IMG/VR virus record: IMGVR_UViG_3300037067_008064
Span: 1-64,000 of that record
Length of the DNA: 64,000 nt
Origin: a virus
Lineage: Duplodnaviria; Heunggongvirae; Uroviricota; Caudoviricetes
Direction: 5' to 3' (one strand)
Shown here: positions 781 through 21,614 of the stretch, one piece after another
Position numbering within the stretch: the stretch's first letter is position 1
Layout: each line of letters opens with the position of its first letter
The notes under the pieces: generated by a model
Database searches by the model: none
What the model was told of the DNA's origin: nothing
Seen by the model: the letters and a program-made list of their open reading frames with translations, nothing else
Translations under genes and position numbers: made by a program

Positions 781-803
781 AAAGAAAGTACAAATATTCC
801 CAG

Positions 804-2336: not shown

Positions 2337-2344
2337 GAATATAG

Positions 2345-2361: not shown

Positions 2362-2387
2362 TGAAAGAATGGCAAAAATTTCCACGG

Positions 2388-2535: not shown

Positions 2536-2608
2536 AGCAAAATATGGGTCTCGAACCCACGACCTTAACCTTGGCAAGGTTACGCTCTACCAATTGAGCT
2601 AATTTTGC
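2536..2608 (-). tRNA. tRNA-Gly (anticodon GCC)
   Basis: Perfect acceptor GCAAAAT/ATTTTGC; canonical D-arm GCTC..GAGC; anticodon loop TTGCCAA. Confidence 0.65.
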
Positions 2609-2650
2609 AGTTGCGGATATCCTAACCAACTAGATGACCAACCCCAAAGG

Positions 2651-2720
2651 GGCCAGGTGAGATTTGAACTCACGTTTTCCGCCGCAGTCTACAAGGGATT
2701 CGAACCCACGTTTTCCGCCG
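2651..2720 (-). pseudogene. tRNA 3'-end fragments created by a 36-bp tandem duplication (2672-2707 = 2708-2743)
   Basis: Exact direct repeat ACGTTTTCCGCCGCAGTCTACAAGGGATTCGAACCC x2 duplicates the T-arm and acceptor 3' strand. A further T-arm (GTGAGTTCAAATCTCAC) lacks a 5' partner. Confidence 0.4.
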
Positions 2721-2796
2721 CAGTCTACAAGGGATTCGAACCCTTTGTCTTACATGGCAGACAACCATGTTCCTTTCCGGAAAGGCAAAGTAGACC
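2721..2796 (-). tRNA. tRNA-like, anticodon GTC (Asp-like, atypical D-region)
   Basis: Acceptor and T-arm are good; anticodon loop TTGTCTG; the D-region is a near-perfect palindrome CCTTTCCGGAAAGG. Confidence 0.35.
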
Positions 2797-3054
2797 AAAT
2801 TAATTATAATATTACTGGTGCGACTTTTAGATTTCAATAGTTCTCATGTGCACTAAAACCTTCTGAGTGAAACTCGCCAATGCTGCAGACATTGTTTTAC
2901 CTATCATAACAACAAGTTTTGAGTAATATTATAATTGCTGATTTTGTAAGATTCGAACTTAACTTCCACTGTACAGCCGCGTACCGTGTTGAATGACGTG
3001 CCTCCTTTACACTACAAAATCAAAATAAAATTGAGAAAATTAATAAGAGGATTT

Positions 3055-3129
3055 CCAGTATTACTACTGTTTGATAGGACTTGAACCTATAACTGTTTGT
3101 TTAATAGACAAATGCGTTACCATTACGCG
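3055..3129 (-). tRNA. tRNA-like, unresolved (anticodon loop CTATTAA; acceptor does not pair)
   Basis: Good D-arm GCGT-AATGGTA-ACGC, anticodon stem TTTGT/ACAAA and T-arm ATAGGTTCAAGTCCTAT, but no 7-bp acceptor could be formed. Confidence 0.25.
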
Positions 3130-3161
3130 ACGATGAAACTCTTATAGTTACTACAATTTTG

Positions 3162-3236
3162 CTCCCCCGACGGGAGTTGAACCCGCTTGAATTCCTGAGT
3201 GACAGTCAGACGTCCTAGCCGCTAGACCTCAAGGGA
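3162..3236 (-). tRNA. tRNA-Asp (anticodon GTC)
   Basis: Canonical Asp anticodon loop CTGTCAC; acceptor TCCCTTG/CGGGGGA with two G-U pairs. Confidence 0.55.
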
Positions 3237-3242
3237 ATGTTG

Positions 3243-3321
3243 TGGGGAAGATAGGATTCGAACCTACAAGTGGTGTGACAGTTTTACAGACTGCTGAGCC
3301 AGCCAATTGCTCAACCTCCCC
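3243..3321 (-). tRNA. tRNA-Tyr (anticodon GTA), class II
   Basis: Acceptor GGGGAGG/CTTCCCC; anticodon loop CTGTAAA; long variable arm. Confidence 0.6.
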
Positions 3322-3356
3322 AAGTTAAAACTAAGAAAATTAAAAAGAATGTTTTT

Positions 3357-3430
3357 TGGTGCTTGATGCGGGAATTTAACCCGCGCCTATTGATTTGAAT
3401 TCAATTGCTCTAACGTAGAGCTAATTAAGC
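3357..3430 (-). tRNA. tRNA with anticodon TCA (reads UGA; opal-suppressor or Trp-UCA type), genomically encoded CCA
   Basis: GCTC..GAGC D-arm; anticodon arm ATTGA-ATTCAAA-TCAAT; T-arm GCGGGTTAAATTCCCGC; 3' end ...ATCAAGC-A-CCA. Confidence 0.5.
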
Positions 3431-3460
3431 GATGTAATCCTTTAAATCACTATAGTTTTG

Positions 3461-3534
3461 CGGATAAGGTGAGATTCGAACTCACATCATTTAGCTTAAC
3501 AGGCTAAAGTTTTACCAATTATTACTACCTATCC
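3461..3534 (-). tRNA. tRNA-Asn (anticodon GTT)
   Basis: Anticodon arm TTAGC-CTGTTAA-GCTAA; T-arm GTGAGTTCGAATCTCAC. Confidence 0.55.
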
Positions 3535-3538
3535 CGGT

Positions 3539-3744
3539 AACCCTCTCAAGGATTTGAACCTTGGTCCCCTTGATTACACCTTGCCTTTTCACTTCATGCG
3601 CAATCCATGAAACGTTAAAGGTTCATCTACCTTAGTTATTTAATTACCTTTCTAATATGCCTTACGTACAACATATTAGATACTTCTTTAAACTTCTAAA
3701 TTCCGGCATCAATCCGGACGCTCTAACCACTGAGCTAAGAGGGC
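3539..3744 (-). tRNA. split tRNA-Ser (anticodon TGA): 5' half 3702-3744 and 3' half 3539-3563, with a ~140-nt intervening sequence at the variable-arm position
   Basis: 5' half = GCCCTCT-TA-GCTCAGTGGTTAGAGC-G-TCCGG-ATTGATG-CCGGA. 3' half = CAAGG-TTCAAAT-CCTTG-AGAGGGT-T. The acceptor strands pair 7/7. The intervening sequence contains hairpins (CTAATATG...CATATTAG; TTCATG-GATTGCG-CATGAA). Confidence 0.45.
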
Positions 3745-3749
3745 ATTTG

Positions 3750-3820
3750 CGCTCATAAACAGATTCGAACTGATATCAAGTGGTTAACAGCCACCCGTTC
3801 TACCTTTGAACTATATAAGC
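3750..3820 (-). tRNA. tRNA-Asn (anticodon GTT), second copy
   Basis: Acceptor GCTTATA/TATGAGC; anticodon arm GGTGG-CTGTTAA-CCACT. Confidence 0.5.
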
Positions 3821-3972
3821 ATTTAAACAGAGAAAATTAGTATGAGCATTTTTTAAACTTCTTCCCCGAGTTTTGTTTTAAATAATGGTGGGGAAGGCTG
3901 GTTACGAGCCAACTATTTTACATTTTCAATTGTATTGTTTTACGATGAAACTCATTATATTACTACTGTTTG

Positions 3973-4045
3973 TGGAGCCTAAGGGCATCGAACCCTTGTC
4001 TGGAGAGTGCAAATCTCCTATTCTCGCCATTTTAACTAAGGCCCC
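3973..4045 (-). tRNA. tRNA-Ala (anticodon TGC)
   Basis: Anticodon arm GGAGA-TTTGCAC-TCTCC; T-arm AAGGGTTCGATGCCCTT. Confidence 0.55.
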
Positions 4046-4115
4046 ATTATTTGTTAATGCTAAGTGCAGCCCACCTACTTAGCTTTACTCCTTCTTGTAA
4101 AGAACATTAACATTG

Positions 4116-4188
4116 TCGGCTACATAGGATTTGAACCTATATTGCGTGAGTATCAGTCACGTGTCCTAACCAGTTAGACGATAAGCCG
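4116..4188 (-). tRNA. tRNA-Ile (anticodon GAT)
   Basis: Anticodon arm CGTGA-CTGATAC-TCACG; the inner two acceptor pairs mismatch in my fold. Confidence 0.45.
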
Positions 4189-4196
4189 TAATGTTG

Positions 4197-4268
4197 AGCC
4201 TTCAACCAGAATCGAACTGGGATTTCAAGATTACAAGTCTAGTGTTCTACCTATTGAACTATGAAGGC
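4197..4268 (-). tRNA. tRNA-Thr (anticodon TGT)
   Basis: Perfect acceptor GCCTTCA/TGAAGGC; GTTC..GAAC D-arm; anticodon loop CTTGTAA. Confidence 0.6.
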
Positions 4269-4276
4269 ATTGTAGA

Positions 4277-4362
4277 TTTTAATAATAGGATTCGAACCTA
4301 TGAAGAATGCGAATGACTTCCGCTTTGATAACCGCTTCGCTCTATTTAAACGTCATATTGTC
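4277..4362 (-). tRNA. tRNA-like, unresolved (possibly class II)
   Basis: Canonical T-arm ATAGGTTCGAATCCTAT; the 5' part could not be folded confidently. Confidence 0.25.
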
Positions 4363-4483
4363 TCCATATTAAAATCTAATTTTATCGTACATTTTCTTCT
4401 ATCATACTTGACTAGAGCATCTTGCAGGTAGTCAGCCTACTGGCCTATAAAATTATTATGTGTCACAAAGAATTTGTACTCAG

Positions 4484-4567
4484 TGCACCCGGAGGGATTC
4501 GAACCCACGACTCTCGGTTTAAAAGACCGATACTCTATGCTTGCGCTGCCATCTGAGTTACGAGTGC
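4484..4567 (-). tRNA. tRNA-Lys (anticodon TTT) with an enlarged D-loop
   Basis: Acceptor GCACTCG/CGGGTGC; anticodon arm TCGGT-CTTTTAA-ACCGA; D-loop ~19 nt. Confidence 0.5.
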
Positions 4568-4573
4568 ATTAAT

Positions 4574-4634
4574 AATCTTTCTTAACTTTCTTTTATAGAT
4601 ACCTTTCAACGTAACATTAAAGTTAAGAAAGATT
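4574..4634. repeat. perfect 16-bp inverted repeat with 29-nt spacer
   Basis: AATCTTTCTTAACTTT ... AAAGTTAAGAAAGATT between tRNA-Lys and tRNA-Phe. Confidence 0.6.
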
Positions 4635-4673
4635 ATTTTAATTATTATACAACATGTCAAAGACCTTTTTAAT

Positions 4674-4747
4674 GTGGAACCAAACCGAATTGAACGGATG
4701 CCTTTGGATTTTCAGTCCAACGTGTCAAACCACCTACACCATAGTTC
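4674..4747 (-). tRNA. tRNA-Phe (anticodon GAA)
   Basis: D-arm GTGT..ACAC; anticodon arm TTGGA-CTGAAAA-TCCAA; acceptor GGAACTA/TGGTTCC. Confidence 0.6.
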
Positions 4748-4750
4748 CTT

Positions 4751-5428
4751 TTAATTAATTAGTTTTTCGTATTCAAGTAATTCTTTTTTTGTAATAATTT
4801 CAATTTTAATATGTTCATTTTGTCTTATAACTTGTTGCATTTTATTTTTATCTTCACCCCACCAATATCCTTTTATTTCAAAATACTTATTTAATTTAGA
4901 ACTATAAAAATCTGGGGTATAATAATGTTTATTTTTGTTTTCATCTTCCCATATAAAACTATGTTCTTTATTTCCTACACCAATTTTTATCCAATTTTCA
5001 TCTATTATATCTAATATTTTTGCAAATCTAACTTCCCATGTTCCTTGTAATTTAAATTCAGTATTATCTTTTTTAAGATATGAAAACCATTTGCATTTTC
5101 CTCCTTTATTGTTAATAGATAATTTTTTACTTATTTTTAATTTAGTTAAAGAAGTATGCATACTATTTTTCCAATGATTAATAGTTTTTCCGGATTTAAA
5201 GTTATTACTAAGAGTTTCACCAGTTTTTTTAACTCTTTCATCTATAAATTTAGTTAATCCTTTATTCCAGGGGATTTTATTTTTAAGTTTATTTTTATGT
5301 AATTTACCATTATCTGTATGCATTCTCCATATATGAGTAGCAATACCTTTTTTAGAAAATTCTTTATGACAAAAAGAACATTTATAATTACCATTATTTT
5401 GTAGCCATTCTGAATTTATTGTTATCAT
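4751..5428 (-). CDS. putative homing nuclease (Cys/His zinc-finger N-terminus + PD-(D/E)xK-like core)
   Basis: N-terminal CSFCHKEF...HIWRMH segment, then GTWE..FAKILD, YTPDFY and EIKGYW motifs (PD...E.K). Paralog of 25804-26484. Directly follows tRNA-Phe. Late-promoter cassette upstream. Confidence 0.4.
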   Translation of the reverse strand: MITINSEWLQNNGNYKCSFCHKEFSKKGIATHIWRMHTDNGKLHKNKLKNKIPWNKGLTKFIDERVKKTGETLSNNFKSGKTINHWKNSMHTSLTKLKISKKLSINNKGGKCKWFSYLKKDNTEFKLQGTWEVRFAKILDIIDENWIKIGVGNKEHSFIWEDENKNKHYYTPDFYSSKLNKYFEIKGYWWGEDKNKMQQVIRQNEHIKIEIITKKELLEYEKLIN

Positions 5429-5452
5429 TTTTATTTTATATATTCATAAATG
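5429..5452 (-). promoter_or_regulatory. late-promoter-like cassette (GAATATATAAAATAAAA-ATG)
   Basis: The same cassette recurs upstream of the endonuclease genes. Confidence 0.45.
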
Positions 5453-5515
5453 CTCTACCAAAAATATAGGTTTTTGTAAACGCAAAACCAATCAATATTT
5501 CAAAGTACAATTTAG

Positions 5516-5588
5516 CACGCCAGGTAGGAGTTGAACCCACAATCTTTGGTTTTGGAGACCACTGCTCAGCCAATTGAGCTACTGACGT
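5516..5588 (-). tRNA. tRNA-Trp (anticodon CCA)
   Basis: GCTC..GAGC D-arm; anticodon loop CTCCAAA; T-arm GTGGGTTCAACTCCTAC. Confidence 0.55.
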
Positions 5589-5620
5589 ATATTTTAAAGA
5601 ACTTATTTTTTAATTGCAAC

Positions 5621-5656
5621 AAAAAAGCGGGTGACTTTTCAGTGCGCCCGCTTTTT
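5621..5656. terminator. bidirectional intrinsic terminator
   Basis: AAAAAGCGGG...CCCGCTTTTT: a GC-rich stem flanked by an A-run and a T-run. Confidence 0.6.
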
Positions 5657-5855
5657 AATTTCTTTATTATTAAAGGTTTTATCCCTCAATTGTTTCTTCA
5701 TTAATCAGCGAGCATATTCTATTTCCTGTGCCATAATCTACGGCATCCCATTTTCTATTAATCATATGCAAATAAAATCGTGTCATCACTAATTTATTTA
5801 AAGTTTATTATTTTATTATATATCTACTAAAAAGTTTTAACTTATTTAGTTCTTG

Positions 5856-5944
5856 TTGCGGGTATCCGATTCGGACGGATGATGACATTTGAATGCCATT
5901 TGGGGTTATGAGTCCCATGAGTTAGTCCGCTACTCTAACCCGCG
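5856..5944 (-). tRNA. initiator-like tRNA-Met (anticodon CAT) with a ~20-nt extra hairpin in the variable region
   Basis: C1xA72 mismatch, GGG/CCC anticodon-stem pairs and a CTCATAA loop as in bacterial tRNA-fMet. An extra TGGCA-TTCAAA-TGTCA hairpin lies before the T-arm (ATCCG-TCCGAAT-CGGAT). Confidence 0.4.
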
Positions 5945-6855
5945 ATGTAGGAGCCCATCAGGAGCTCCGAAAGTCCATTAGCTTAATAGCTAAAATAGAG
6001 TGGTAAACCTTATGTAACAATATTGCAGTTACTATAGTGCCACTTTCCTATAACTTTGGACAATATTTTCAAATAACGTATTGCTAATATAAAACATTTT
6101 TTTCAATTTAAGACATCTTAAATGTTAAAGAATGTTAAAAGGCAATGTTCGGTTTGAGATAAAAGAAACTTCCTGTGTAATGCGCTACACTTAATTTTCT
6201 CAAAAAGAACGGTATAAATCTAGATTAACGCATGTTTATCTAATTTAATATCTATATTTGAATAAAGAAGTATTTAATTTTTTGCAACCATCCATATAGA
6301 CTAGCCTCGGTTGGTCATCCTTCCAATGTATGTTGCGCATCAGACTTGCTTAGACCTCAAGCATCTACCAGAATACCTTACGAGCTCGGTATAAAGGCTT
6401 GTTGAATTTCTCTTATTAGAAAATGGAATTTCACCATTTCCTCAATTGTTTCCTGGGTTTTCTGTACCCAACAATTTTTAGTTCATAATTCACAAAAAGA
6501 ACTTGTTTTTAATCCATAAATTACTTAACCTCTAGCACTGATTTCCATTATAAGATGTTATTATTCTTTATTCCTTGCCTAAGGGAATTGTTACACACAT
6601 TGACATGTGGTGAGTATAACTAAATAATACAAATCCCAACTTCGCGCCGGTTTAACCTTTAGTTGTTCATTTATGAACGCAATCCAATATCTCAAAGAAC
6701 ATCAGGTCTGAATAGACCGTACCGCCACTTACACTTAAGGTAGTAAGCACCTTTGATTTAAAAATTGTTATATGTAGCTCGTTACTTCTACCTTAGCTTC
6801 TTACCGTTTTCAGATAATACTATCCATTACTCTATGGAAATATAACAATATTTTG

Positions 6856-6928
6856 TAGCGGGAACGAGATTCGAACTCGTGACCTTCTGGTTATGAGCCA
6901 GGTGAGCTGGCCTCTGCTCCACCCCGCA
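6856..6928 (-). tRNA. initiator-like tRNA-Met (anticodon CAT)
   Basis: Collinear with E. coli tRNA-fMet (…GCGGGGTGGAGCAG…CTCATAA…AGGTC…TTCGAAT…CCCGC). Position 1/72 is mismatched (T/T). Confidence 0.5.
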
Positions 6929-7136
6929 ATGTATTGTAAAAATTATTCTTTTGGTCCCGCAAGCAACCATATAGATTAACACCTCGCAGTTAGAATCCAA
7001 TAATCTTTACAAATATTTTTAAAGAACTTAAATTTCAATTTTGAAGAATACTAAATTAATACAAATTTTTGAATCTAAAAAATTTTAATTGTTAATAAAT
7101 GTTAAAATTTATAACTTATTATTAATCAATTTTTAG

Positions 7137-7207
7137 AGCTTCATAAAGGACTCGAACCTTTACAACTACTTTACGAAAGTAGTATTCTTCCATTAAATTA
7201 AAGAAGC
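7137..7207 (-). tRNA. tRNA-Thr (anticodon CGT, tentative)
   Basis: T-arm AAAGGTTCGAGTCCTTT; anticodon arm CTACT-TTCGTAA-AGTAG; one acceptor mismatch. Confidence 0.35.
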
Positions 7208-7869: not shown

Positions 7870-8313
7870 TTACTTAATTAAATTTTTAACTTGTTCAGAT
7901 GTTATTCTAGTATCATCTTTTCCAACCCAAACTATTTCATCATAAATAATTGATTCAGATACAATACAATTAAAATAATATCCATTCCATTCACCAACAA
8001 AACATTTAGTTTCTTTTGGTATAATACATTTTACTATAACACCTTTTTTACCACATGATACAGTTCCAAATTCATCTATATTATTAATAATATCTAACAA
8101 ATCATTAAATGCATGAAATCCACTATTTATTTGTTTATTATCAATTTCAAATTCATCAAAATCAACATGATACAATTCTTTTAAATTTATTTTAAAACGA
8201 TTTTGATAAAACCCTTGATATTCATTGGTTACAGGGTCTTGTTCAATAAGTTTATAGACAATAATATCTTCTTTTGTAAGACTTGGTATTTTTTTATTAA
8301 TTGTTAAACACAT
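7870..8313 (-). CDS. hypothetical protein, Met-Cys-Leu paralog family A
   Basis: Internal start MCLTINKKIPSLTKEDIIVYKLI aligns with the MCL...DIKIYKVFV starts of 8373-8780 and 10489-10899. Shared GFHAF/GFHSF motif. The track start at 8337 is probably too far upstream. Confidence 0.4.
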   Translation of the reverse strand: MCLTINKKIPSLTKEDIIVYKLIEQDPVTNEYQGFYQNRFKINLKELYHVDFDEFEIDNKQINSGFHAFNDLLDIINNIDEFGTVSCGKKGVIVKCIIPKETKCFVGEWNGYYFNCIVSESIIYDEIVWVGKDDTRITSEQVKNLIK

Positions 8314-8372
8314 AATTTTAATATTTTTAATCTCCATACATCCAATTTAATTCATCTTCTAGTGTAATTTGA

Positions 8373-8780
8373 TTATTCATTTATTTTTGCTTTTATAATT
8401 ATTTGATTACTAACTATTTCGCTTCCTTGGCCTGAAATATAATTGCTACCTTTAGGAATAATACCACTATAAATACTTCTTACACTATTATTAGGCATTG
8501 ATTCTATAAGATATCTCGCACTTTTTATATCTGTAAAAGAATGGAACCCATTATTAATATGCCAATAAAATTTAAATCCATCTCTATATGGCTTTAAATC
8601 TCTTTTATTAAAAGAAGTTTCATTCAATTTATTTAATTCCCAATTATATGCATAACAGGGACTACATAACTGGTCGAGATCATTATATGAAACAAATACT
8701 TTGTATATTTTAATATCTTCTGTTGCTTTTTGAATAGGGTTTCTACCTTTAAATATATTTCTTTCTTTATCTAAACACAT
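8373..8780 (-). CDS. hypothetical protein, Met-Cys-Leu paralog family A
   Basis: MCLDKERNIFKGRNP...DIKIYKVFV...NNGFHSFTD; paralog of 10489-10899 and 7870-8313. Confidence 0.45.
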   Translation of the reverse strand: MCLDKERNIFKGRNPIQKATEDIKIYKVFVSYNDLDQLCSPCYAYNWELNKLNETSFNKRDLKPYRDGFKFYWHINNGFHSFTDIKSARYLIESMPNNSVRSIYSGIIPKGSNYISGQGSEIVSNQIIIKAKINE

Positions 8781-8784
8781 AATT

Positions 8785-9228
8785 TTAATAATTTATAGTC
8801 ATTTCTTTTCTTACTCTCATTAAGGTTATACCTAATTGGTTTCTTCCTTTAATATTTTTACATTCAGGACATGAACAATCACCCCAGTAATTATCATGCC
8901 AAGTATTACCTTCAACAAGTTCTTCTGTACCTGTTGCTAATAGTTTCTTTCTTAAATCAGGATTTTGAGCAAACTTAAGTTTAACAATCATATACATAAT
9001 TTGGTCTTTAACTTCAGTCCAATCTTCTCTTACTTTAATATGCTGCCCTAATCTTTTTGATTGCCCTGGAGTAGTTGCCAATCTTACCATATCATGGTCA
9101 GAAACATTTGAAGCTTTTGATGCTTGATAAAAATGTTCTGATGAAGGATATGTTCTTTTGCCATAAGTTATTGGGGCTAACCAAAAATTACTAAGGAATC
9201 TATATTGCCCATGAAAATCATTAATCAT
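8785..9228 (-). CDS. NADAR / YbiA-like (DUF1768) domain protein
   Basis: FLSNF, SSEHFYQASK and NTWHDNYWG blocks match the YbiA/NADAR fold, a family of ADP-ribose-processing N-glycosidases. Confidence 0.55.
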   Translation of the reverse strand: MINDFHGQYRFLSNFWLAPITYGKRTYPSSEHFYQASKASNVSDHDMVRLATTPGQSKRLGQHIKVREDWTEVKDQIMYMIVKLKFAQNPDLRKKLLATGTEELVEGNTWHDNYWGDCSCPECKNIKGRNQLGITLMRVRKEMTINY

Positions 9229-9246
9229 TTTATTTTATTTTAAATA

Positions 9247-10077
9247 TTAATCAATAAAAGCATTTGTTGAATTACCAACTTCAGTTGAAATATGAATTTC
9301 ATGCCAACTAGGTAAATTAATTGTGTGGTGATCTGGGTGTTTGACTTTACCACGACCAAGTACTGTTGCACCACGTACTTGTTGTGAAAAACCTAATCTT
9401 TCTTCTGGTGATAAACTTTTATATTCAGATTCTGTAATTATTCTATCTCGTTTAACATAAACAGTTTCACCACCAAAACGAACAACTTCTTCAACAACAT
9501 GTGATGTGCCTCCACGACGGCTAATTGGTTCATTTTTATGTATGATAGTACTTTTATCTTCTTGAAAATTTACGGGCACAAAAAACCATTCACCTTGACG
9601 GATAAATCCTTTGGTTTTTCTTTTTTTCCATTCTTTAGTTTTTACTCCTTGGCGAATCATTGAAATGTTTACAGCTTTTGGTCTAAGAAGTGCAAAAGCT
9701 TCACGAATATTTTTTGCCATAGTTACACCAGCAACAAACCAGTGCATTTCATCACGACCAAGTAAAAGTCTTTCATCAAAAGTTTCATTTGGTTTACCGC
9801 GTTTAAAAATTTGACGTCCTCCTACCCAAGAACTATCTATTCTTGGGGCACGAATAAAAATTAACATTTGACGAAGTTTTGGGTCAAAATCTAAAACTTG
9901 TAAAGTTATTTCTGATTCATTAATATCGGGGTGTATGGTCATTGTAAAATGTTCACCTTGTTTATCATTTGTAACATTCATACGAATAACCCCATCACGT
10001 GCTAATGAACTTCCTTTACGGATAGTAACACGTGCTCCAATTTTTTCAAAACTTTTTCTGAGATTATCTCTATTCAT
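9247..10077 (-). CDS. hypothetical protein (two H-x-T-x motifs; possible 2H-phosphoesterase-like)
   Basis: Long ORF between the NADAR and PTH2 genes. Contains EHFTMTIHP and HPDHHTINLP, two HxTx motifs; the function assignment is speculative. Confidence 0.45.
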   Translation of the reverse strand: MNRDNLRKSFEKIGARVTIRKGSSLARDGVIRMNVTNDKQGEHFTMTIHPDINESEITLQVLDFDPKLRQMLIFIRAPRIDSSWVGGRQIFKRGKPNETFDERLLLGRDEMHWFVAGVTMAKNIREAFALLRPKAVNISMIRQGVKTKEWKKRKTKGFIRQGEWFFVPVNFQEDKSTIIHKNEPISRRGGTSHVVEEVVRFGGETVYVKRDRIITESEYKSLSPEERLGFSQQVRGATVLGRGKVKHPDHHTINLPSWHEIHISTEVGNSTNAFID

Positions 10078-10078
10078 T

Positions 10079-10489
10079 TTATAATAATTTTAAATTTTTT
10101 GTTATTTCATCTATATCATTTGGATATGCGGGGCCTATTGCAATACATGTTTTAGTTGGTATTCCATGAAATTCTGTTAAACCAGAATCAACAATTAAAG
10201 AACATAATAAATGTTTTTCTTTAGCTTTATTATATAATTCATCTAATTCTTGTTCTGAATTACACCCAACTACAATTTTAACAAACCTTCCCTCAATCCA
10301 TTCTTTTAAATATGTTTCTTCTTTTTCAATTTCTAAAATCCAGTCTCTTCTATAACCAGAATATGTTAATTCAGAATTATATATTTTATCTAAAAGAACT
10401 TTCATAGAGGCATGTGCAGCTTGCGCGCACATTTTACCTTTACGCATATTAAGATCAGTCCTTATTACAATTACTTGTTTTGGTTCCAT
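10079..10489 (-). CDS. peptidyl-tRNA hydrolase, PTH2 family
   Basis: VIVIRTDLNMRKGKMCAQAAHAS is the PTH2 signature; typical length (~136 aa). Confidence 0.6.
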   Translation of the reverse strand: MEPKQVIVIRTDLNMRKGKMCAQAAHASMKVLLDKIYNSELTYSGYRRDWILEIEKEETYLKEWIEGRFVKIVVGCNSEQELDELYNKAKEKHLLCSLIVDSGLTEFHGIPTKTCIAIGPAYPNDIDEITKNLKLL

Positions 10490-10899
10490 TATATTGATTC
10501 TAAATCTATTTCTTTCAAAATAATAATTCTTTCAGAAACAATTTCACATGCTATATCATCACTTAATATATATTTAGTTCCATTTGGAACAACACATTCA
10601 AATATTGTACAGTGACAGTCCCTATGATCAATGGCATCTTCTATATTTAAGAAGGCGTGAAAACCTTGATTAATATACCATTGATTTTTATGTTTATAGT
10701 TATATACTGGCAATAAATCTAATTCACAAAAATTAGTTTCATATGTTTTATTAAATTCATATATAAAATTTCTATGAGGACTTACTATTGCGGTTTCTCC
10801 TTCATAATGAACTAAATATTTATATACTTTAATATCTTTTTTTGCTATTTTTACAGGGTTTTTACCCCATATAACATGCCTTTTTTTTGATAAACACAT
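10489..10899 (-). CDS. hypothetical protein, Met-Cys-Leu paralog family A
   Basis: MCLSKKRHVIWGKNP...DIKVYKYLV...NQGFHAFLN; start overlaps the PTH2 stop. Confidence 0.45.
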   Translation of the reverse strand: MCLSKKRHVIWGKNPVKIAKKDIKVYKYLVHYEGETAIVSPHRNFIYEFNKTYETNFCELDLLPVYNYKHKNQWYINQGFHAFLNIEDAIDHRDCHCTIFECVVPNGTKYILSDDIACEIVSERIIILKEIDLESI

Positions 10900-10905
10900 A
10901 ATTTG

Positions 10906-12093
10906 TTAATTTGTAATTTTTAATTTGTATTTGCAATATTCTACTTCTTTTGGGTCACCAGTACTTTTGCCTGGGTCATCTGATAATTTAACTGCCGGGA
11001 ACCATTCTCCATTAATAAAAACTTCAGAAATTTTAATTACCATATTTAATGGAGTAACCCCAACATCATTTGTAAAATTAGTTCCTATTCCAAAAGAACA
11101 ATTGATTTTATTTTCACAATATTTTTTTATGTTAACTGCTTTTTCTGGATTTAAATTATCACTAAAAATAATGGTTTTTGTTAATGGGTCTATTCCAAGC
11201 GATTTATAGTGTGTGATAGTTTTATCAGCAAATTCAATTGTATCACCACTATCTTGTCTTACACCATCAAATAATTTAACAAATTTTAAATTAAATGATT
11301 TATAAAATACATTACTTGTGTATGTATCTGATAAAGCAATACCAAGATCACCACCATATACTTTAATCCAATTATCAAGAGCTATTTCATTTGCTAAAGT
11401 ATATCCATATAAAGCGGCATGTATCATAAACCATAAATGTGCACATGTGCCTATTGGTTTTAAATCATATTTTTTAGCTAAAAATACATTACTTGTACCA
11501 ACAAAATTAGGTTGATAATTAGAAAAAATATGTACAATTCTATCATGATTTTCAAAAGAATATCTTCTCCTTTGCCCCATATCAACAAAGTTAACACCAT
11601 TATCTTTTAAAAATTTAGCTTTAGCCATATCTTTATTTAAAAGATTATGAAGATCAACTTGTTGTTCTGTCATTATAAAATATAATTCAGAAATTATTGA
11701 TAATAGAGGAACTTCCCACATCATGCATGTTGATAATGTACCTTCTAAAGTAATATCTAAATGTCCTCCTATTTGTTTTATTTTAATTTGACATGGATTA
11801 TATTTAAAAACTTTAAGAAAATTAACATATGTTTCTGGTAAATATTTAATTTTTTTAAGAAACAAATAATCAGTTTCCTTTAATGCTAATTCACTCATAT
11901 ATTGAACTTGTTTTCTTAATTCAATATCAAATTTCTTTGGAAATTCAATCTCTGATCTTGTAATAAATTTATATCTTACCTTAAGCTCCGGGAATATTTT
12001 TATTGTTGCCCATTGCATAGTAAATAAATATAAATCATTATCTAATATAGATTGTATAATTGGATTAATCATTTCCTTATGTATCAAAAACAT
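10906..12093 (-). CDS. nicotinate/nicotinamide phosphoribosyltransferase family protein (PncB/NadV-like)
   Basis: ~395 aa with a CSFGIGTNFTND block typical of the NAPRTase family. Sits next to pncA and nadE. Confidence 0.55.
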   Translation of the reverse strand: MFLIHKEMINPIIQSILDNDLYLFTMQWATIKIFPELKVRYKFITRSEIEFPKKFDIELRKQVQYMSELALKETDYLFLKKIKYLPETYVNFLKVFKYNPCQIKIKQIGGHLDITLEGTLSTCMMWEVPLLSIISELYFIMTEQQVDLHNLLNKDMAKAKFLKDNGVNFVDMGQRRRYSFENHDRIVHIFSNYQPNFVGTSNVFLAKKYDLKPIGTCAHLWFMIHAALYGYTLANEIALDNWIKVYGGDLGIALSDTYTSNVFYKSFNLKFVKLFDGVRQDSGDTIEFADKTITHYKSLGIDPLTKTIIFSDNLNPEKAVNIKKYCENKINCSFGIGTNFTNDVGVTPLNMVIKISEVFINGEWFPAVKLSDDPGKSTGDPKEVEYCKYKLKITN

Positions 12094-12101
12094 TTTATTA
12101 T

Positions 12102-12734
12102 TTAATCACCAAATTCACCAAAGGTAATTCTTTTTCTTTTAGATTCACTTATTTTTCTTTTAGTTTCTTCAGACAATTTAATAATTCCTTTAATATTCTT
12201 ATTCCAGGGAATTTGCCCTTGATGTGCCATGCTCATTTTTTTCTTGGTTTCTTTAGAATGTTTATGATTTTGTATATAAGCATTTTGTTTAAGAGAATTA
12301 ATTATTTTTTGTTTTGTACTTTCACTATGTGGGTTTTTCTTAATTCCTTTAGATGATAAGCTTATTTTTAATTTATGTTCTTTAGAAAGTTTTTTTCCTT
12401 TATGAGCTTCACTCATTTTCTTTTTAGTTTCTTCTGAAAAACATTCTATAATTCCTAATCCACCTTTCGGGCTTATATTATATCCATTTGGGCACAATGT
12501 ATTATATTGTTTAATATATTTTTCTTGTGCATTAAAAGCTTCTTCTTTAGTATTAAAATATTCTAGAATTTCTTTTTTAAAGTTTCTTTTTCCATATTTT
12601 TTAAATGCACTATTTAAAAGTGGCCGACCGCTTCCTATATATTTATCATTTAAATTATTGGTTGAATGTTCACCAACATATAATTTTTTATTAATAATAT
12701 TAATTGTTAAATAAACATAATGAAATTGTTTCAT
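12102..12734 (-). CDS. GIY-YIG homing endonuclease with NUMOD3-like C-terminal repeats
   Basis: MKQFHYVYLTINIINKKLYVGEHS GIY-YIG start; repeated ..SEETKKKMS..HKGKK.. units; late-promoter cassette upstream. Confidence 0.65.
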   Translation of the reverse strand: MKQFHYVYLTINIINKKLYVGEHSTNNLNDKYIGSGRPLLNSAFKKYGKRNFKKEILEYFNTKEEAFNAQEKYIKQYNTLCPNGYNISPKGGLGIIECFSEETKKKMSEAHKGKKLSKEHKLKISLSSKGIKKNPHSESTKQKIINSLKQNAYIQNHKHSKETKKKMSMAHQGQIPWNKNIKGIIKLSEETKRKISESKRKRITFGEFGD

Positions 12735-12736
12735 AA

Positions 12737-12758
12737 GTTTATTTTATATATTCATAAA
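12737..12758 (-). promoter_or_regulatory. late-promoter-like cassette
   Basis: Minus strand TTTATGAATATATAAAATAAAC-TT-ATG. Confidence 0.45.
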
Positions 12759-12760
12759 AA

Positions 12761-13447
12761 TTATAGAATATTCACCAAAGGTAATTCCCAACTCTCTACT
12801 ATATCCACATTGGCACCGAAGAATTCTTCAGTAACCTTTGGTAATTTATTCTTATAAATTTCTTTGCATGCATCTATAATTACGTATGTTGTATAACCGA
12901 GATTTGCAGATTGAATAGCAGTTTCTCTAATACAGTAATCAGTTGCTAAACCTGTTACAAACACTTCTGATACGCCAAACTTCTTCAGCAATTGATGTAA
13001 TCCAGTATGTTCATTTACTAATACAGGTGAATTATTTTTTTCATTTACAGTATGGCAATTAAAAAAAACACCATAAGATTCAAATTTTTCTTTGTTTCCT
13101 TTTTTAATTATATAAAGTTTTTTATTATTATCTTTAAAAAATTGCAGATTTAAATCTTCATGAAATTGGGCACCTGGAGTATTTTGTACACAATGGTCAG
13201 GCCATAATATATCTACGACTCCATCAATATTCATTGATTCAAAAGGCTTTTTTCCTTCATGATTTGAAGCAAACCATACATGATTTTGTGGGTGCCAATC
13301 CTTTGTAAATACAACTAAATCAAATTCAGGTATAAGTTTATTTATTAAAGGTATTATTGAGTTTGCACCCTTTACAGCCAATGACCCACCTTCACAAAAG
13401 TCATTTTGTACATCTACAACAAGTAAGGCTTTATTAATTTTTTTCAT
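12761..13447 (-). CDS. pncA: nicotinamidase/pyrazinamidase (isochorismatase fold)
   Basis: LLVVDVQNDFCEGG, lysine and ATDYCI give the Asp/Lys/Cys triad arrangement of PncA. Confidence 0.65.
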   Translation of the reverse strand: MKKINKALLVVDVQNDFCEGGSLAVKGANSIIPLINKLIPEFDLVVFTKDWHPQNHVWFASNHEGKKPFESMNIDGVVDILWPDHCVQNTPGAQFHEDLNLQFFKDNNKKLYIIKKGNKEKFESYGVFFNCHTVNEKNNSPVLVNEHTGLHQLLKKFGVSEVFVTGLATDYCIRETAIQSANLGYTTYVIIDACKEIYKNKLPKVTEEFFGANVDIVESWELPLVNIL

Positions 13448-13457
13448 AGTTTTATTT

Positions 13458-14276
13458 TTATAGTAAACAACATTTTGGTGCTACATTTCTTTTATGATCA
13501 GATTTACTAACCATTGTAGCAATTTTATCTAAATCATCATCTGATAAATTAAATTTCATTTTAAAATTGTTAAATGCTTTAACAATAGCAAAAACATTAG
13601 CATTATTTTTAACTATTAAATTATTAATTGCAAAATAGTTATCTAATATTTCATAACTATATCCAATTTCTTTTTCATCTGTTTGTTCATCATATAAACC
13701 AGCTGTCGGTGTTCTTCTGGCTATATGGTCTGGAAATCCATAACATTCACAAACTTGAAATACTTCACTTTTATATAAATCGGCAATAGGTTCAATATCT
13801 ACTCCTGAACCACCGTCACCACCTTTAGTAAAATAACCAATCTTATCTTCAATTAAATTAGTTGTACCGAGAACTAAATAATCAAGTTTTTCTGCTTTTG
13901 CTCTTAAAGCAGTCATTCGTATTCTTGCTTTAATATTAGGTATAGTTTTTAATTCTGTGGTTAAATCCATTTGTTCGACGAAATCATTTAAAGCATTACT
14001 TAAATATAATATATCATAGTTAATGTTTAAATAGTTTGCAACAAATTTAGCATCTTTAATATCTTCCGGCCTTTCATTTTCATTTGGTAAATACAATGGA
14101 AGTATTAATCCATATACATTATCAACTCCAACAGCTTCTACAGCTAACGCAGCAGTTGCTGTTGAATCTACACCACCAGATAATCCTATTACATATCCTT
14201 TAGCTCCAGAAGTTTTTAAATACTCTTTTAGCCAATCAACAATTTTTTGTATTTTATTTTCTGTTAAATTATTCAT
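13458..14276 (-). CDS. nadE: NH3-dependent NAD+ synthetase
   Basis: GYVIGLSGGVDS PP-loop. Start set at the ATG 14276 (MNNLTENK...); the track extension to 14333 begins with GTG. Confidence 0.7.
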   Translation of the reverse strand: MNNLTENKIQKIVDWLKEYLKTSGAKGYVIGLSGGVDSTATAALAVEAVGVDNVYGLILPLYLPNENERPEDIKDAKFVANYLNINYDILYLSNALNDFVEQMDLTTELKTIPNIKARIRMTALRAKAEKLDYLVLGTTNLIEDKIGYFTKGGDGGSGVDIEPIADLYKSEVFQVCECYGFPDHIARRTPTAGLYDEQTDEKEIGYSYEILDNYFAINNLIVKNNANVFAIVKAFNNFKMKFNLSDDDLDKIATMVSKSDHKRNVAPKCCLL

Positions 14277-14280
14277 TATT

Positions 14281-14448
14281 TTAAATATAATGTTTCTGAA
14301 ATCTTTCTTTATCTTCTTTTGATAACTTGCCACCTATCCAATCAAGAATACCTAATCTTTTATCTATCATCCATTGTTCTTTGCCTGATAACTTAAAAAA
14401 GTTTCTTGGCCTTTCAAAGGATTTTTCAAACATTTCTCTTTCTGTCAT
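14281..14448 (-). CDS. small hypothetical ORF (55 aa)
   Basis: ATG...TAA ORF (MTEREMFEKSF...) that fills the gap between nadE and the dCMP deaminase gene. Below the track threshold. Confidence 0.25.
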   Translation of the reverse strand: MTEREMFEKSFERPRNFFKLSGKEQWMIDKRLGILDWIGGKLSKEDKERFQKHYI

Positions 14449-14511: not shown

Positions 14512-14988
14512 TTAAAGATTGTTAAATTTTAAATTATTAACTTTAATAAATTCATTAAGTTCTTCAGATTCAACCTTTTCAATTTCAATAAACCCTAATA
14601 GCTCATTATTAATTGTAGCTTTATCATAATCAAATACATAATATATTTTCTTAATACCTGATTGAATAAGGTTTTTAAGACATTGATCGCATGGATGAAC
14701 TGTTGTATATAATTCACAACCATCAATACTAAGATCATTTTTAGCTGCAAATAATATTGCATTCATTTCTGCGTGTATTTCGTATTTATCTGAAAAAGCA
14801 TGATGTTTTTCTCTATCAAAGGTTTCTTTACGAAATATGGTATTGCAATTTGGAAATCCGGGCGCAGTACCGTTATAACCAGTTGATAATATTCTTTTGT
14901 CTTTTACAATAAGACATCCTACTTTATAAGAAACACATTTGGATTCTTGTGAAAGCAACAATGCTGTTTTTAAAAAAAATAATTTCAT
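14512..14988 (-). CDS. cd: dCMP deaminase (CMP/dCMP deaminase zinc-binding)
   Basis: HAEMNAI and PCDQC zinc-ligand motifs. Confidence 0.65.
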   Translation of the reverse strand: MKLFFLKTALLLSQESKCVSYKVGCLIVKDKRILSTGYNGTAPGFPNCNTIFRKETFDREKHHAFSDKYEIHAEMNAILFAAKNDLSIDGCELYTTVHPCDQCLKNLIQSGIKKIYYVFDYDKATINNELLGFIEIEKVESEELNEFIKVNNLKFNNL

Positions 14989-17469: not shown

Positions 17470-17778
17470 TTATTTATGTTTAATTATTACTTCTTCACTT
17501 ATTCTATAGGCTGTTACTGCTTCTTGTTTATAATGAGATATGGTAAAATCTATTATTTGATTTATAATTTCTCTTGTGCAAGCAATTCTAACAGGTATCA
17601 TTCTATCATTATATTCTTTGCCATCTGGCGCCACCCAGATTCCTTTAGAAGTTTTGAATATAGTTAATCCATTAGATAATGTTTTAACAAAACTGTCCCA
17701 CTTCTTGTGATGTTCTATTGGAAATTTCTCTCCATCATTAGAATACATAGGTACTAATATTTCCCAAAGATATATCAT
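17470..17778 (-). CDS. hypothetical protein
   Basis: ORF only. Confidence 0.35.
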   Translation of the reverse strand: MIYLWEILVPMYSNDGEKFPIEHHKKWDSFVKTLSNGLTIFKTSKGIWVAPDGKEYNDRMIPVRIACTREIINQIIDFTISHYKQEAVTAYRISEEVIIKHK

Positions 17779-18044
17779 TTTACAGGGTCATTTAACCATT
17801 GAATAAACCAAAATTGAACATCATATTTTTTATGACTGAATTTTATATTAAATTTTTTAGCTACAAAATATTGAAATACAATTATTTCTGCTATTGGGTC
17901 AAGTTGTATTTCTATTTGATAAATTCCTTGATTAGAAAGTGTATCAATTTGTTTTTCTATTTCTAGTATTTTTTCTGAGAATTCTTCTAAGCCTTTTTCA
18001 ACATGAAAATTATTAGCTTGAAGGTTTGCTATTATTGCGTTCAT
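17775..18044 (-). CDS. hypothetical protein
   Basis: ORF only. Confidence 0.35.
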   Translation of the reverse strand: MNAIIANLQANNFHVEKGLEEFSEKILEIEKQIDTLSNQGIYQIEIQLDPIAEIIVFQYFVAKKFNIKFSHKKYDVQFWFIQWLNDPVK

Positions 18045-19245: not shown

Positions 19246-19857
19246 ATGAAACAATTTCACTACGTTTATATAACAACTAATTTAATAAATGGAAAACAAT
19301 ATGTCGGTGACCATTCAACAGATAATTTAGATGATGATTATTTAGGAAGCGGTAAATTAATTTCCAAAGCTATTCATAAATATGGTAAACATAATTTTAA
19401 GAAAGAAATATTAGAATCTTTTAATATTAAAGAAAAAGCATTTATTACACAAGAAAAATATATTCAGAAATTTAATACTTTAATTCCAAATGGATATAAT
19501 ATAAGTCCTAAAGGTGGACATAATGTTAAAAATAGTTTATCTGAAGAAACTAAAAGGAAAATTAAAATTGGTAATACTGGTAAAAAACTTTCGGATGAAC
19601 ATAAATTAAAATTAAGTATTTCACATAAAGGAAAAATCTTTTCAGAAGAACATAGATTAAAATTAAGTAATTCAAAAAAAGGAAAAATACTTTCTGCAGA
19701 ACATAAATTAAAAGTAAGTGAATCACGAAAAGGAATAATATTTTCAGAAGAACAAAAAAGAAAAATTAAAGAATATCATTTAGGTAAAAAACATTCAGAA
19801 GAAACTAAAACCAAAATAAGTAATTCACTTAAATTAAATAGATATCATTCAATATAA
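19246..19857 (+). CDS. GIY-YIG homing endonuclease with NUMOD3-like repeats
   Basis: MKQFHYVYITTNLINGKQYVGDHS; repeated KLS.EHKLK.S units. The only plus-strand gene in this region, bracketed by terminators. Confidence 0.65.
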   Translation: MKQFHYVYITTNLINGKQYVGDHSTDNLDDDYLGSGKLISKAIHKYGKHNFKKEILESFNIKEKAFITQEKYIQKFNTLIPNGYNISPKGGHNVKNSLSEETKRKIKIGNTGKKLSDEHKLKLSISHKGKIFSEEHRLKLSNSKKGKILSAEHKLKVSESRKGIIFSEEQKRKIKEYHLGKKHSEETKTKISNSLKLNRYHSI

Positions 19858-19910: not shown

Positions 19911-21614
19911 TTATATGTTAATTTGATTGATAGCTTTGATAACAACATTAGGATCTAATTCTACCTTTTTAGCGGTTTCATAAATATCTTTAGAGTAACC
20001 AAAGATACGGAATACTTTATTACCTGCTTTCATAACAGTTGGGCCGTAACCTACTATATTAACAAGGTAAATATATGGTGTACCATATTTAGCAGAATAT
20101 GCTTTAAGCATTCCTTCTACTCTTCCACCATCTTGTTCATCTGTTATAATGATAATACGGTCGAATTTTTCATTTGATCTTAAGAATAAGCTGAAAATTT
20201 GTGAATAATCAGTTCCGTGTCCAACACGACCATTATAACCCATGAAATGTTTCTTAAGAGTATTAATGGTATCATTTGGATTATAGCCAATAATTCTTTC
20301 ACAGCCTGATGCAAAGTGATAAACTGGTGAGTTCATAGCTTTGGTGAATGTTGCCGCAACAAGTGCAGCTTTTTCACATGGTCTTTTATTAATTGAACAT
20401 GCTTTTCCACCTTTTTCAATTTGGACGCCACTACCATATCCACCTTCCATTGAACCTGATGTATCAAATACAACGGCAGTTCTTCCTTCTGGGAATAATC
20501 CTACTAAGTTTGGAATTGAACGTTCATATGCAATGTCAAGAGCCTTTGCAACCTTTGACAAATATTTATTTGAGTTAAATTCAAGTAACATTATTTCTAA
20601 TGCTAAATCAATTTGATGTGGCCATACTAAAGATTTTTGTATGAACTTATCTTCTATTAAAAGATCACATGCGCTATCTACTAATTCAGCGTTATCAGTA
20701 TTAAGAATATTTCTCATATTTCTTAATAATGCAAGATAACCGATCTTTTTCTTTGCAATAAGTTCAGTGAAGTTTTCTGTCTTAAGTTCATTAAGTTTTT
20801 CTTCAGCTGCTTCTGATGTAAGTTCACCTGATTTAAAAGCTTCAGAAACTGTTTTACCAGCTTCAGTATTCTTGTCTTCAACAGTATTAAATTGCTTTAA
20901 TAAACCTAATACAAGAGCACGTAATGCAGAAATTCTTACAAATACTTTTCCTTCTTTTTCATATGATTCAGGTAGTTGAGCAGCATACTTTGTACCTTTT
21001 ACAGCTTTTTGATAATCTGCTATTTCAACTTCAATGAATCCATTTTTCTTTGATTCAATAGGGTGAACTAAGTTAACAACGTCAACTAAAGAAACACTTC
21101 TATTTTTTGCTTGATATTTAGCCAATTCATACATATCTGCATCTTCAATTGCAAGCGCAAATCCTTTCTTAATAGCATTTGGAATTGGGGCATTAGCTCC
21201 ATTCTTTGCTAGATAACATGCTAAAATTTCTAACATGTCATCAATACGATAGACAATACCACCAGCATTTTCTTTACGTGATCTTTTTGAGTAGAATTTC
21301 TTTCCTAACTCGTCACCTGCAAAATGCTTTAAAAGTTCAACAGCTCCTCTATGTGTAACTGTTCTTTGTCCAAAAACAGTACGGGCATAAATAAGAGCTT
21401 TAGCTGCAAAAAGCTTATTTTTCTTTGCAACTTCATTAAGGACTTGAGCAAAACGTATATCACGTTCTGATTCCTTTTCATAAAATGTGTTTTCTAAACC
21501 GGTGGCAAGGATTCCGATTAATTCGTTTTCTGGTTTTTGTGTAAAACCTGCGCCACCTTGATGTGTTACAGTTGGTTGAATTTCACTAACTGGTTTTTGA
21601 TTGTACTTTGCCAT
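19911..21614 (-). CDS. Ro60/TROVE-domain protein with C-terminal von Willebrand A (MIDAS) domain
   Basis: N-terminal VTHQGGAGF...TFYEKESE fits the TROVE start. C-terminal AVVFDTSGSM is a DxSxS MIDAS motif. AAAGGAGGT ribosome-binding site 7 nt before the ATG. Confidence 0.55.
   Translation of the reverse strand: MAKYNQKPVSEIQPTVTHQGGAGFTQKPENELIGILATGLENTFYEKESERDIRFAQVLNEVAKKNKLFAAKALIYARTVFGQRTVTHRGAVELLKHFAGDELGKKFYSKRSRKENAGGIVYRIDDMLEILACYLAKNGANAPIPNAIKKGFALAIEDADMYELAKYQAKNRSVSLVDVVNLVHPIESKKNGFIEVEIADYQKAVKGTKYAAQLPESYEKEGKVFVRISALRALVLGLLKQFNTVEDKNTEAGKTVSEAFKSGELTSEAAEEKLNELKTENFTELIAKKKIGYLALLRNMRNILNTDNAELVDSACDLLIEDKFIQKSLVWPHQIDLALEIMLLEFNSNKYLSKVAKALDIAYERSIPNLVGLFPEGRTAVVFDTSGSMEGGYGSGVQIEKGGKACSINKRPCEKAALVAATFTKAMNSPVYHFASGCERIIGYNPNDTINTLKKHFMGYNGRVGHGTDYSQIFSLFLRSNEKFDRIIIITDEQDGGRVEGMLKAYSAKYGTPYIYLVNIVGYGPTVMKAGNKVFRIFGYSKDIYETAKKVELDPNVVIKAINQINI

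Follow-up and report, generated by a model that had tools for sequence, protein, structure and literature searches.

The gene run and its surroundings

The DNA analysed here, called the window throughout, is a 64,000-nucleotide (nt) stretch of a Caudoviricetes record (IMG/VR IMGVR_UViG_3300037067_008064). Our subject is a run of genes at positions 8373-14448 that encodes three enzymes of nicotinamide adenine dinucleotide (NAD+) salvage, PncA, PncB and NadE, together with a PTH2 peptidyl-tRNA hydrolase, a NADAR protein and a conserved protein of 276 amino acids (aa). The three salvage genes belong to a module that recurs in large phages. The run as a whole is likely composite: its accessory genes would have been inherited independently and now share a long minus-strand transcription block in a jumbo phage of ~316 kb. 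The source is assigned to the jumbo phages because a PncB identical to the window copy sits on a 316,176-bp contig of the Joint Genome Institute (JGI), and no near-identical DNA for the region was found by megablast among 50,697 phage records. At 27.6% G+C the window is AT-rich. It carries nearly all of its genes on the minus strand, encodes a tail-sheath domain (Pfam) and contains 31 tRNA genes by ARAGORN (33 by Rfam) in two arrays. The nearest cellular homologues of PncB (55-58% identity) come from named Bacteroidota/Bacteroidales, and the phage probably infects a bacterium of the Bacteroidota. The features of the run and its flanks are as follows.

14512-14988, minus: dCMP (deoxycytidylate) deaminase with NCBIfam ComEB/deaminase matches, directly upstream of the NAD genes and not NAD-related
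14281-14448, minus: 55-aa open reading frame (ORF) between the dCMP deaminase and NadE
13458-14333 as listed, minus: NadE, single-domain NH3-type NAD+ synthetase
12761-13447, minus: PncA nicotinamidase (Pfam Isochorismatase)
12102-12734, minus: GIY-YIG + NUMOD3 homing endonuclease (Pfam, phrog_314)
10906-12093, minus: PncB nicotinate phosphoribosyltransferase (NAPRTase, NAPRTase_N, TIGR01514)
10489-10899, minus: small paralog C of the phrog_13450 family (E=4.7e-15)
10079-10489, minus: PTH2 peptidyl-tRNA hydrolase, archaeal type (PF01981)
9247-10077, minus: 276-aa protein of a conserved family, with no assigned function
8785-9228, minus: NADAR, predicted ADP-ribosylglycohydrolase (PF08719)
8373-8780, minus: small paralog B of the phrog_13450 family
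7870-8337, minus: small paralog A (phrog_13450, E=1.3e-12), just beyond the start of the 8373-14448 stretch
803-7207, minus: array of 20 tRNA genes by ARAGORN (Rfam gives more), directly downstream of the cluster

Profile searches bore out all five enzyme or domain assignments that an initial annotation had made in this run (NADAR, PTH2, a NAPRTase-family enzyme, PncA and NadE), in that curated thresholds were passed or catalytic motifs were kept.

The NAD+ salvage genes and their recurrence in large phages

PncA scores 80.5 bits against Pfam Isochorismatase (cut-off 27) and 167.1 bits against the nicotinamidase model NF008623, just under its cut-off of 174 (7 bits short). Its best PDB matches are all nicotinamidases, with 2WT9 at the top (160.9 bits), and in the alignment to 2WT9 the motifs VVDVQNDF, DWHPQNH, KKG and ATDYC are kept, that is, the catalytic Asp, Lys and Cys together with the metal site. 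By its profile and structure matches PncB reads as a nicotinate phosphoribosyltransferase and not as NAMPT: it matches NAPRTase (206.6 bits) and NAPRTase_N (91.4), exceeds the cut-offs of the TIGR01514 equivalog (414.7 vs 269.55) and NF003704 (447.9 vs 379), aligns with PDB 2IM5 at 320 bits and keeps His219 of the GT.AH.W motif, whereas its match to the NAMPT PHROG is weak (E=2.6e-14). NadE passes Pfam NAD_synthase (215.5 bits vs 21) and TIGR00552 (210.3 vs 63.65), and the PP-loop motif SGGVDS is present in its sequence. Its true start is more likely the ATG at 14276 (M20 of the listed ORF), so that NadE would not overlap the 55-aa ORF.

The pathway proposed in the initial annotation, in which PncA, PncB, a host NadD and NadE act in succession, fits this gene content. 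Four approaches found no NadD/NMNAT-type gene in the 64-kb window: Pfam on the 75 other ORFs, comparison with the NMNAT of Phosso, a phage NadD profile built from four sequences, and a motif search; the CTP_transf_like domain had no match among all window ORFs. One candidate, an 89-aa ORF at 17775-18044, gave a weak match to the NadD profile (E=0.0016) and was rejected, having no Pfam domain. Three of the four Preiss-Handler steps are thus encoded in the 64 kb examined of ~316 kb, and since NadD is absent there, the pathway as seen needs an adenylyltransferase from the host (NadD) or from another part of the phage genome.

The recurrence of these genes was assessed around viral PncB genes. A scan of IMG/VR with the single PncB protein gave no matches; an alignment-based scan succeeded and detected PncB in at least 222 contigs, from which 80 PncB-centred loci were taken. 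Co-occurrence was defined as presence within 10 kb of PncB, and 80 PTH2-centred viral loci served as controls. NadE is present in 65 of the 80 PncB loci as compared with 4 of the 80 PTH2 loci (p=1e-24), PncA in 54 as compared with 3 (p=1e-18), and a NadD-type adenylyltransferase in 36 as compared with 4 (p=3e-9). PncA, PncB and NadE occur together in 50 of the 80 loci, and in 29 of these 50 NadD is present as well. The NAD module was also found in the 735-kb phage LR756501 and in the cultured Sinorhizobium phage Phosso. The other members of the run behave differently around PncB: PTH2 occurs in 9 of the 80 loci, all of them from the closest relatives, and NADAR and the 276-aa gene in one each. 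From these counts, PncA, PncB and NadE form a genuine recurrent module of large phages, clustering far beyond chance, and the other genes do not count among its conserved members; the single five-gene island that had been proposed from the window does not agree with them.

Gene order among the nearest relatives runs dCMP deaminase - NadE - PncA - PncB - PTH2, and the order dCMP deaminase - (NadE) - PncA - PncB is kept in relatives L012-L035. Because the dCMP deaminase is equally syntenic, though unrelated to NAD metabolism, this order reflects lineage gene order and provides no evidence of shared function. The close relative L012 has neither NadE nor an endonuclease at the corresponding site. 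L011, the only bacterial locus inspected, has an isochorismatase-family gene ~2.8 kb away from PncB, and neither NadE nor NadD occurs there within 10 kb.

In L018 (12408-13307 and 13581-15539), a viral contig related to the window, a MazG-NadD (CTP_transf_like) fusion follows just after PncB-PTH2, and a gene for a TonB-dependent receptor comes next, which is either unusual phage cargo or an indication of host DNA in the contig. In the window, a stand-alone NUDIX hydrolase (44271-44840, minus strand) that might act on NAD+ or ADP-ribose lies 30 kb from the NAD genes, unclustered, and NUDIX genes stand beside the PncB module in five of the ten relatives' loci scanned.

The ORF that separates PncA from PncB, described in the initial annotation as an interleaved GIY-YIG endonuclease, is indeed one: it carries Pfam GIY-YIG and NUMOD3 domains and matches the homing endonuclease family phrog_314, all as expected for that class. 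Its distribution at the PncA-PncB junction is patchy, the gene being absent in L012 and present in several relatives. It is a selfish element that invaded this junction and not a member of the pathway. Seven ORFs of the GIY-YIG/NUMOD3 type are encoded in the 64 kb (112-756, 1677-2375, 12102-12734, 19246-19857 on the plus strand, 39276-40139, 50404-51099 and 54288-55079), and two of the seven, which share 70% identity, are situated within the tRNA array. The novel small paralogs reported earlier are likewise real, with 8373-8780 and 10489-10899 matching each other at E=1e-21. Together with 7870-8337 they all match phrog_13450, flank the PTH2-276-aa-NADAR block and display the motifs MCL, I.VYK, IN.GFHAF and IVS..II; paralog C also gives a weak, sub-threshold match to DUF7666, and a phrog_13450 homologue adjoins PncB in relatives L023, L024 and L031.

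PTH2, NADAR and the 276-aa protein

PTH2 passes PF01981 (116.5 bits vs 23) and TIGR00283 (99.6 vs 82), matches Pth2 structures in the PDB and keeps the GK..AQ..HA and D.G.T motifs; K19, Q23, H26, D101, G103 and T105 are invariant in 11 phage PTH2s. At least 493 IMG/VR contigs contain a PTH2 relative. Among the 80 PTH2-centred loci surveyed, 53 carry tRNA genes (521 tRNAs), as opposed to 23 of the 80 PncB loci (138 tRNAs) in the same amount of DNA (Fisher p=3.5e-6), and NAD genes lie near PTH2 in 8 of 80. On the strength of the tRNA counts, the consistent partner of PTH2 in phages is a tRNA array and not the NAD genes. In the window the 20-tRNA array is 2.9 kb from PTH2; among cultured phages, PTH2 sits within tRNA arrays in RsoM2USA, SCTP-2 and LR756500, and tRNA-processing genes adjoin it in Myrna and Astolliot. 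Jumbo-phage PTH2 has been assigned to ribosome rescue (Iyer et al. 2021, PMC7824862). The enzyme of the window is likely best read as part of a translation and tRNA support set, with the tRNA array as its functional context, in which peptidyl-tRNA from stalled ribosomes would be recycled. It resembles the PTH2 genes described in tRNA/RNA-repair neighbourhoods of jumbo phages (PMC7824862) in its archaeal type, its tRNA-rich jumbo genome and the adjoining array, and differs from them in being wedged directly after PncB in this lineage, an arrangement so far undescribed.

Several tRNA features of these loci deserve separate record. A suppressor-type tRNA with anticodon tta, which reads a stop codon, adjoins PTH2 in the 485-kb phage LR745208 (L100, 7629-7705), and a tRNA-SeC(tca) was called at 17521-17593 of locus L038; these two genes are possible signs of stop-codon recoding. 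Within the window, four minus-strand tRNA-like matches were made by Rfam and not by ARAGORN (1112-1184, 3073-3131, 3360-3430 and 4492-4558), two of them partial, and they could be tRNA fragments or pseudogenes.

NADAR scores 112.7 bits against PF08719 (cut-off 35.1), and 774 phage records contain homologues. The window protein is 45% identical (E=2e-39) to bas32_0066, that is, AdfN-Bas32, over nearly the whole of its length; a megablast with the T5-like coliphage NADAR identified that protein as bas32_0066/bas33_0070. In the alignment with bas32_0066 the motifs SNF, EH..Q..K and EGNTW.D.YWG and the residues E31, H32, K38 and E106 are invariant. In experiments, AdfN-Bas32 counteracts DarT1, a DNA ADP-ribosyltransferase, and allows plaques to form again on DarTG1 hosts (Johannesman et al. 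2025, PMC11825919). Like AdfN-Bas32, the window protein is a stand-alone phage NADAR of ~147 aa that keeps all motifs, and it is an orphan, with no cognate ADP-ribosyltransferase toxin adjoining. The earlier suggestion that it could remove ADP-ribose adducts gains support from its identity to this validated anti-DarT1 factor, and we regard it as a putative AdfN-like orphan antitoxin that would remove ADP-ribose from guanine in nucleic acids. Two differences from AdfN-Bas32 apply: an anti-DarT1 activity of the window protein is predicted by homology, and the protein also scores above the YbiA/riboflavin-type model.

The second of these differences bears on another reading, in which NADAR would be a housekeeping N-glycosidase of the YbiA kind, serving to detoxify intermediates of the riboflavin pathway and taking no part in conflict. 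The protein exceeds TIGR02464 ('riboflavin biosynthesis intermediates N-glycosidase'; 100.5 vs 73.7) and has E. coli YbiA (2B3W, 78.9 bits) as its best PDB match; E. coli YbiA is active in vitro and failed to rescue cells from DarT1 toxicity in vivo, and the AdfN authors class YbiA-like NADARs as housekeeping. We consider this role improbable, as the protein is closer to AdfN-Bas32, which restores plaquing of three phages, as homologues are so frequent in phage records and as no riboflavin genes occur in the window.

The 276-aa protein has at least 129 homologues, none of them annotated. The structure prediction suggested for 9247-10077 gave a confident AlphaFold2 model (predicted local distance difference test, pLDDT, 91.9) and no match to a known fold, and no PDB sequence match was found. 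A YarT/DarT-like ADP-ribosyltransferase paired with NADAR was tried as an identity and rejected, the confident model having no ADP-ribosyltransferase or other fold match. Asp, Glu and His positions invariant across the family suggest that the protein is an enzyme. It would be an unrelated accessory gene, probably enzymatic. The genomic contexts of the family are heterogeneous; in one huge-phage contig (L005; 8165-9127, 11252-11737, 16477-17466, 20571-20846) a homologue lies amid ART-PolyVal, CYTH and AAA_28 (NadR-like kinase family) genes and a gene for a PnuC-type transporter of nicotinamide mononucleotide (NMN), a neighbourhood that resembles a NARP3-like pair.

PTH2 and NADAR stand 1-5 kb apart in phages RAS14, Xoo-sp13, XacN1 and Atu_ph07. 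In the Stenotrophomonas phage RAS14 (L093, 8407-11315), Xoo-sp13 and XacN1 (L095, L096) they belong to a block with the order PTH2 - hypothetical - (phosphoesterase or helix-turn-helix gene) - NADAR - HAD_SAK_2 - NUDIX. HAD_SAK_2 is the HAD domain known from RNA repair proteins of the 'Swiss Army Knife' type, and the block looks like an RNA-repair and ADP-ribose-processing module in Xanthomonadaceae jumbo phages. As a general conserved pair, PTH2 and NADAR were not supported by the IMG/VR survey, where NADAR was found near PTH2 in 4 of 80 loci as compared with 1 of 80 controls (p=0.37).

That survey result also bears on whether PTH2, the 276-aa protein and NADAR form an RNA and translation-rescue unit beside the tRNA array, in which NADAR would de-ADP-ribosylate guanines of tRNA or rRNA, PTH2 would free stalled peptidyl-tRNA and the 276-aa protein would add a further step. 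NADARs do reverse guanosine ADP-ribosylation on RNA, the proximity of PTH2 and NADAR recurs in three independent lineages, the RAS14 NADAR overlaps the RNA-repair-type HAD gene that precedes NUDIX, and L104 encodes a 276-aa-family homologue near RtcB, at a distance of 5 kb from PTH2. In the unbiased sample, on the other hand, the NADAR frequency near PTH2 does not differ significantly from that of the controls, the 276-aa family is found in none of the 80 PTH2 loci, and its contexts vary. Such a unit is thus unlikely.

Another arrangement, that of the initial annotation, is one co-selected island in which NADAR, PTH2, PncB, PncA and NadE would jointly defeat NAD+-cleaving and ADP-ribosylating immunity. 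Spacing within the run ranges from a 1-nt overlap up to 35 nt, with 63 nt before the dCMP deaminase, all genes lie on one strand, and no minus-strand terminators were found inside the run. In favour of an island can further be cited the homology of NADAR to a validated anti-DarT1 factor, the NADAR-salvage neighbourhoods reported for NadV/NadM phages and the adjacency of PTH2 to PncB in nine relatives. We nevertheless hold it to be quite improbable. NADAR and the 276-aa gene are each found once in 80 PncB loci and PTH2 only in the closest lineage, where the dCMP deaminase is just as syntenic; PTH2 travels with tRNAs; and ~48% of medium and jumbo phages have a NADAR anyway. Base composition points the same way, as NADAR (31% G+C) and the 276-aa gene, jointly at 31-34%, deviate from their neighbours (~25%); both are absent from the PncB-PTH2 regions of relatives, and their higher G+C suggests a later insertion.

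A composite of independently inherited genes therefore remains our preferred account of the run, and some points weigh against it. The tight packing and the absence of an internal terminator make it probable that the genes of the run are expressed together, and this would fit a shared role. In nine relatives PTH2 adjoins PncB, in L018 it stands between PncB and the MazG-NadD fusion, and PTH2 could be tied to NAD metabolism in this lineage in particular. PTH2 and NADAR are close together in the four phages named above. As 64 of ~316 kb were read, NadD may be encoded elsewhere in the genome, and the anti-defence role of PncA-PncB-NadE considered below is argued from gene content. A scan for sigma-70 promoters gave 73 sites as compared with 76 expected, with a consensus that does not fit Bacteroidota-type promoters.

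One neighbouring gene lies apart from these subjects. A 567-aa protein encoded at 19911-21614 (minus strand) has a sub-threshold TROVE (Ro60-like) match (21.5 bits vs a cut-off of 23) and is kept in position in a related phage (L012, 799-2502); no Y-RNA-like gene was found near it by Rfam.

Proposed role of the NAD genes and comparison with known systems

If the three NAD enzymes are active in the infected cell, PncA would convert nicotinamide to nicotinate, and PncB would join nicotinate and phosphoribosyl pyrophosphate (PRPP) to nicotinate mononucleotide (NaMN). NaMN would then be converted to nicotinate adenine dinucleotide (NaAD) by the host NadD or by a phage adenylyltransferase encoded elsewhere in the genome, and NadE would amidate NaAD to NAD+. 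PncA, PncB and NadE would in this manner raise or restore NAD+ during infection. The main benefit may be resistance to NADase-type abortive-infection systems, which release nicotinamide, with a general NAD+ supply as a secondary one; we regard such an anti-defence role as plausible.

The same genes could instead be an ordinary auxiliary metabolic set that supplies NAD+ or complements a salvage-deficient host and is not specifically directed against defence. The surroundings are rich in nucleotide metabolism, with the dCMP deaminase adjacent and genes for thymidylate synthase and dihydrofolate reductase (DHFR) also in the window; PncB appears host-derived; and phage and host NAD pathways have been described as complementary, with many NAD-consuming enzymes encoded by phages (Li et al. 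2024, PMC11662467). Against a purely metabolic role, the 64 kb contain neither an NAD+-dependent ligase nor any other evident consumer of NAD+, the analogous NAMPT/NMNAT and PnuC/NadR sets were once deemed metabolic and have since been shown to counter NADase defences, and the substrate of PncA, nicotinamide, is the very product that NADase defences release. Weighing the two, we think the metabolic explanation possible and on the unlikely side.

The arrangement had been put forward as possibly a distinct solution among phage NAD+ pathways, a claim of novelty that the literature takes away. A set of 174 'NAD-jumbo phages' that includes pncB-nadD-nadE clusters (e.g., Kuafu_71) was reported by Li et al. 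(2024, Microbiome, PMC11662467), who predicted that the main clade infects Bacteroidota and proposed, on computational grounds, that the clusters counter Sir2-mediated NAD+ depletion. A 2022 survey of viral NAD+ and ADP-ribose metabolism (PMC9503650), which covers only NadV, NadM and NadR, had already noted NADAR in salvage neighbourhoods. In view of the 2024 clusters, the set of the window is a further case of a described kind. It shares with them a jumbo genome, which through the 316,176-bp contig exceeds the 200 kb that delimits the 'NAD-jumbo phage', as well as clustered pncB and nadE, a predicted Bacteroidota host and a proposed anti-Sir2 role, both being known by computation. It differs in possessing PncA, in having no NadD within the 64 kb, so that the complete pathway of that class is not seen here, and in the endonuclease that splits PncA from PncB. 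The local particulars of the window are therefore the presence of PncA, the absence of NadD from the 64 kb, the homing endonuclease insertion and the neighbouring AdfN-like NADAR and PTH2.

Three NAD+ reconstitution pathways, NARP1 (Adps and Namat), NARP2 (NAMPT and NMNAT, e.g., NadV/NatV of Vibrio phage KVP40) and NARP3 (PnuC and NadR), have been shown experimentally to overcome NAD+-depleting defences; the experimental paper on NARP1 and NARP2 makes no mention of PncA, NadE or nicotinate. The window set is like them in that a phage would rebuild NAD+ from breakdown products or precursors. The route differs, as read from the genes, in being deamidating (nicotinamide -> nicotinate -> NaMN -> NaAD -> NAD+) and in comprising four steps, one of them outside the window. 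Neither NAMPT, a PRPS-like Adps, PnuC, NadR nor a HIGH-motif adenylyltransferase was found in the window by Pfam, NCBIfam or PHROG, which sets it apart from NARP1, NARP2 and NARP3. With the bacterial pyridine nucleotide cycle (PncA-PncB-NadD-NadE) the window shares its enzyme families, their intact catalytic motifs and the similarity of PncB to Bacteroidota proteins; unlike that cycle, the set is viral, clustered and without NadD.

NAD+ depletion is among the commonest bacterial strategies against phages, and the deamidating branch is used by none of the three reconstitution pathways proven so far. We tentatively propose, as a possibility less probable than the composite structure of the run itself, that PncA-PncB-NadE(-NadD) constitutes a fourth, experimentally unrecognised phage pathway of NAD+ reconstitution, widespread in large uncultured phages, which would recycle the nicotinamide released by TIR and SIR2 proteins through the deamidated branch. 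In the present lineage it may be co-expressed with the AdfN-like NADAR and PTH2 in a single transcription unit, which would then counter NAD+ depletion, nucleic-acid ADP-ribosylation and translation arrest. The separation of NADAR and PTH2 from the NAD module corrects a reading that would misdirect experiments, and the 276-aa family is brought to attention as well conserved and with no recognisable fold. The combination of PncA, PncB and NadE, often with NadD, is statistically robust and widespread in large phages, and the compact set with its AdfN-like NADAR is directly testable.

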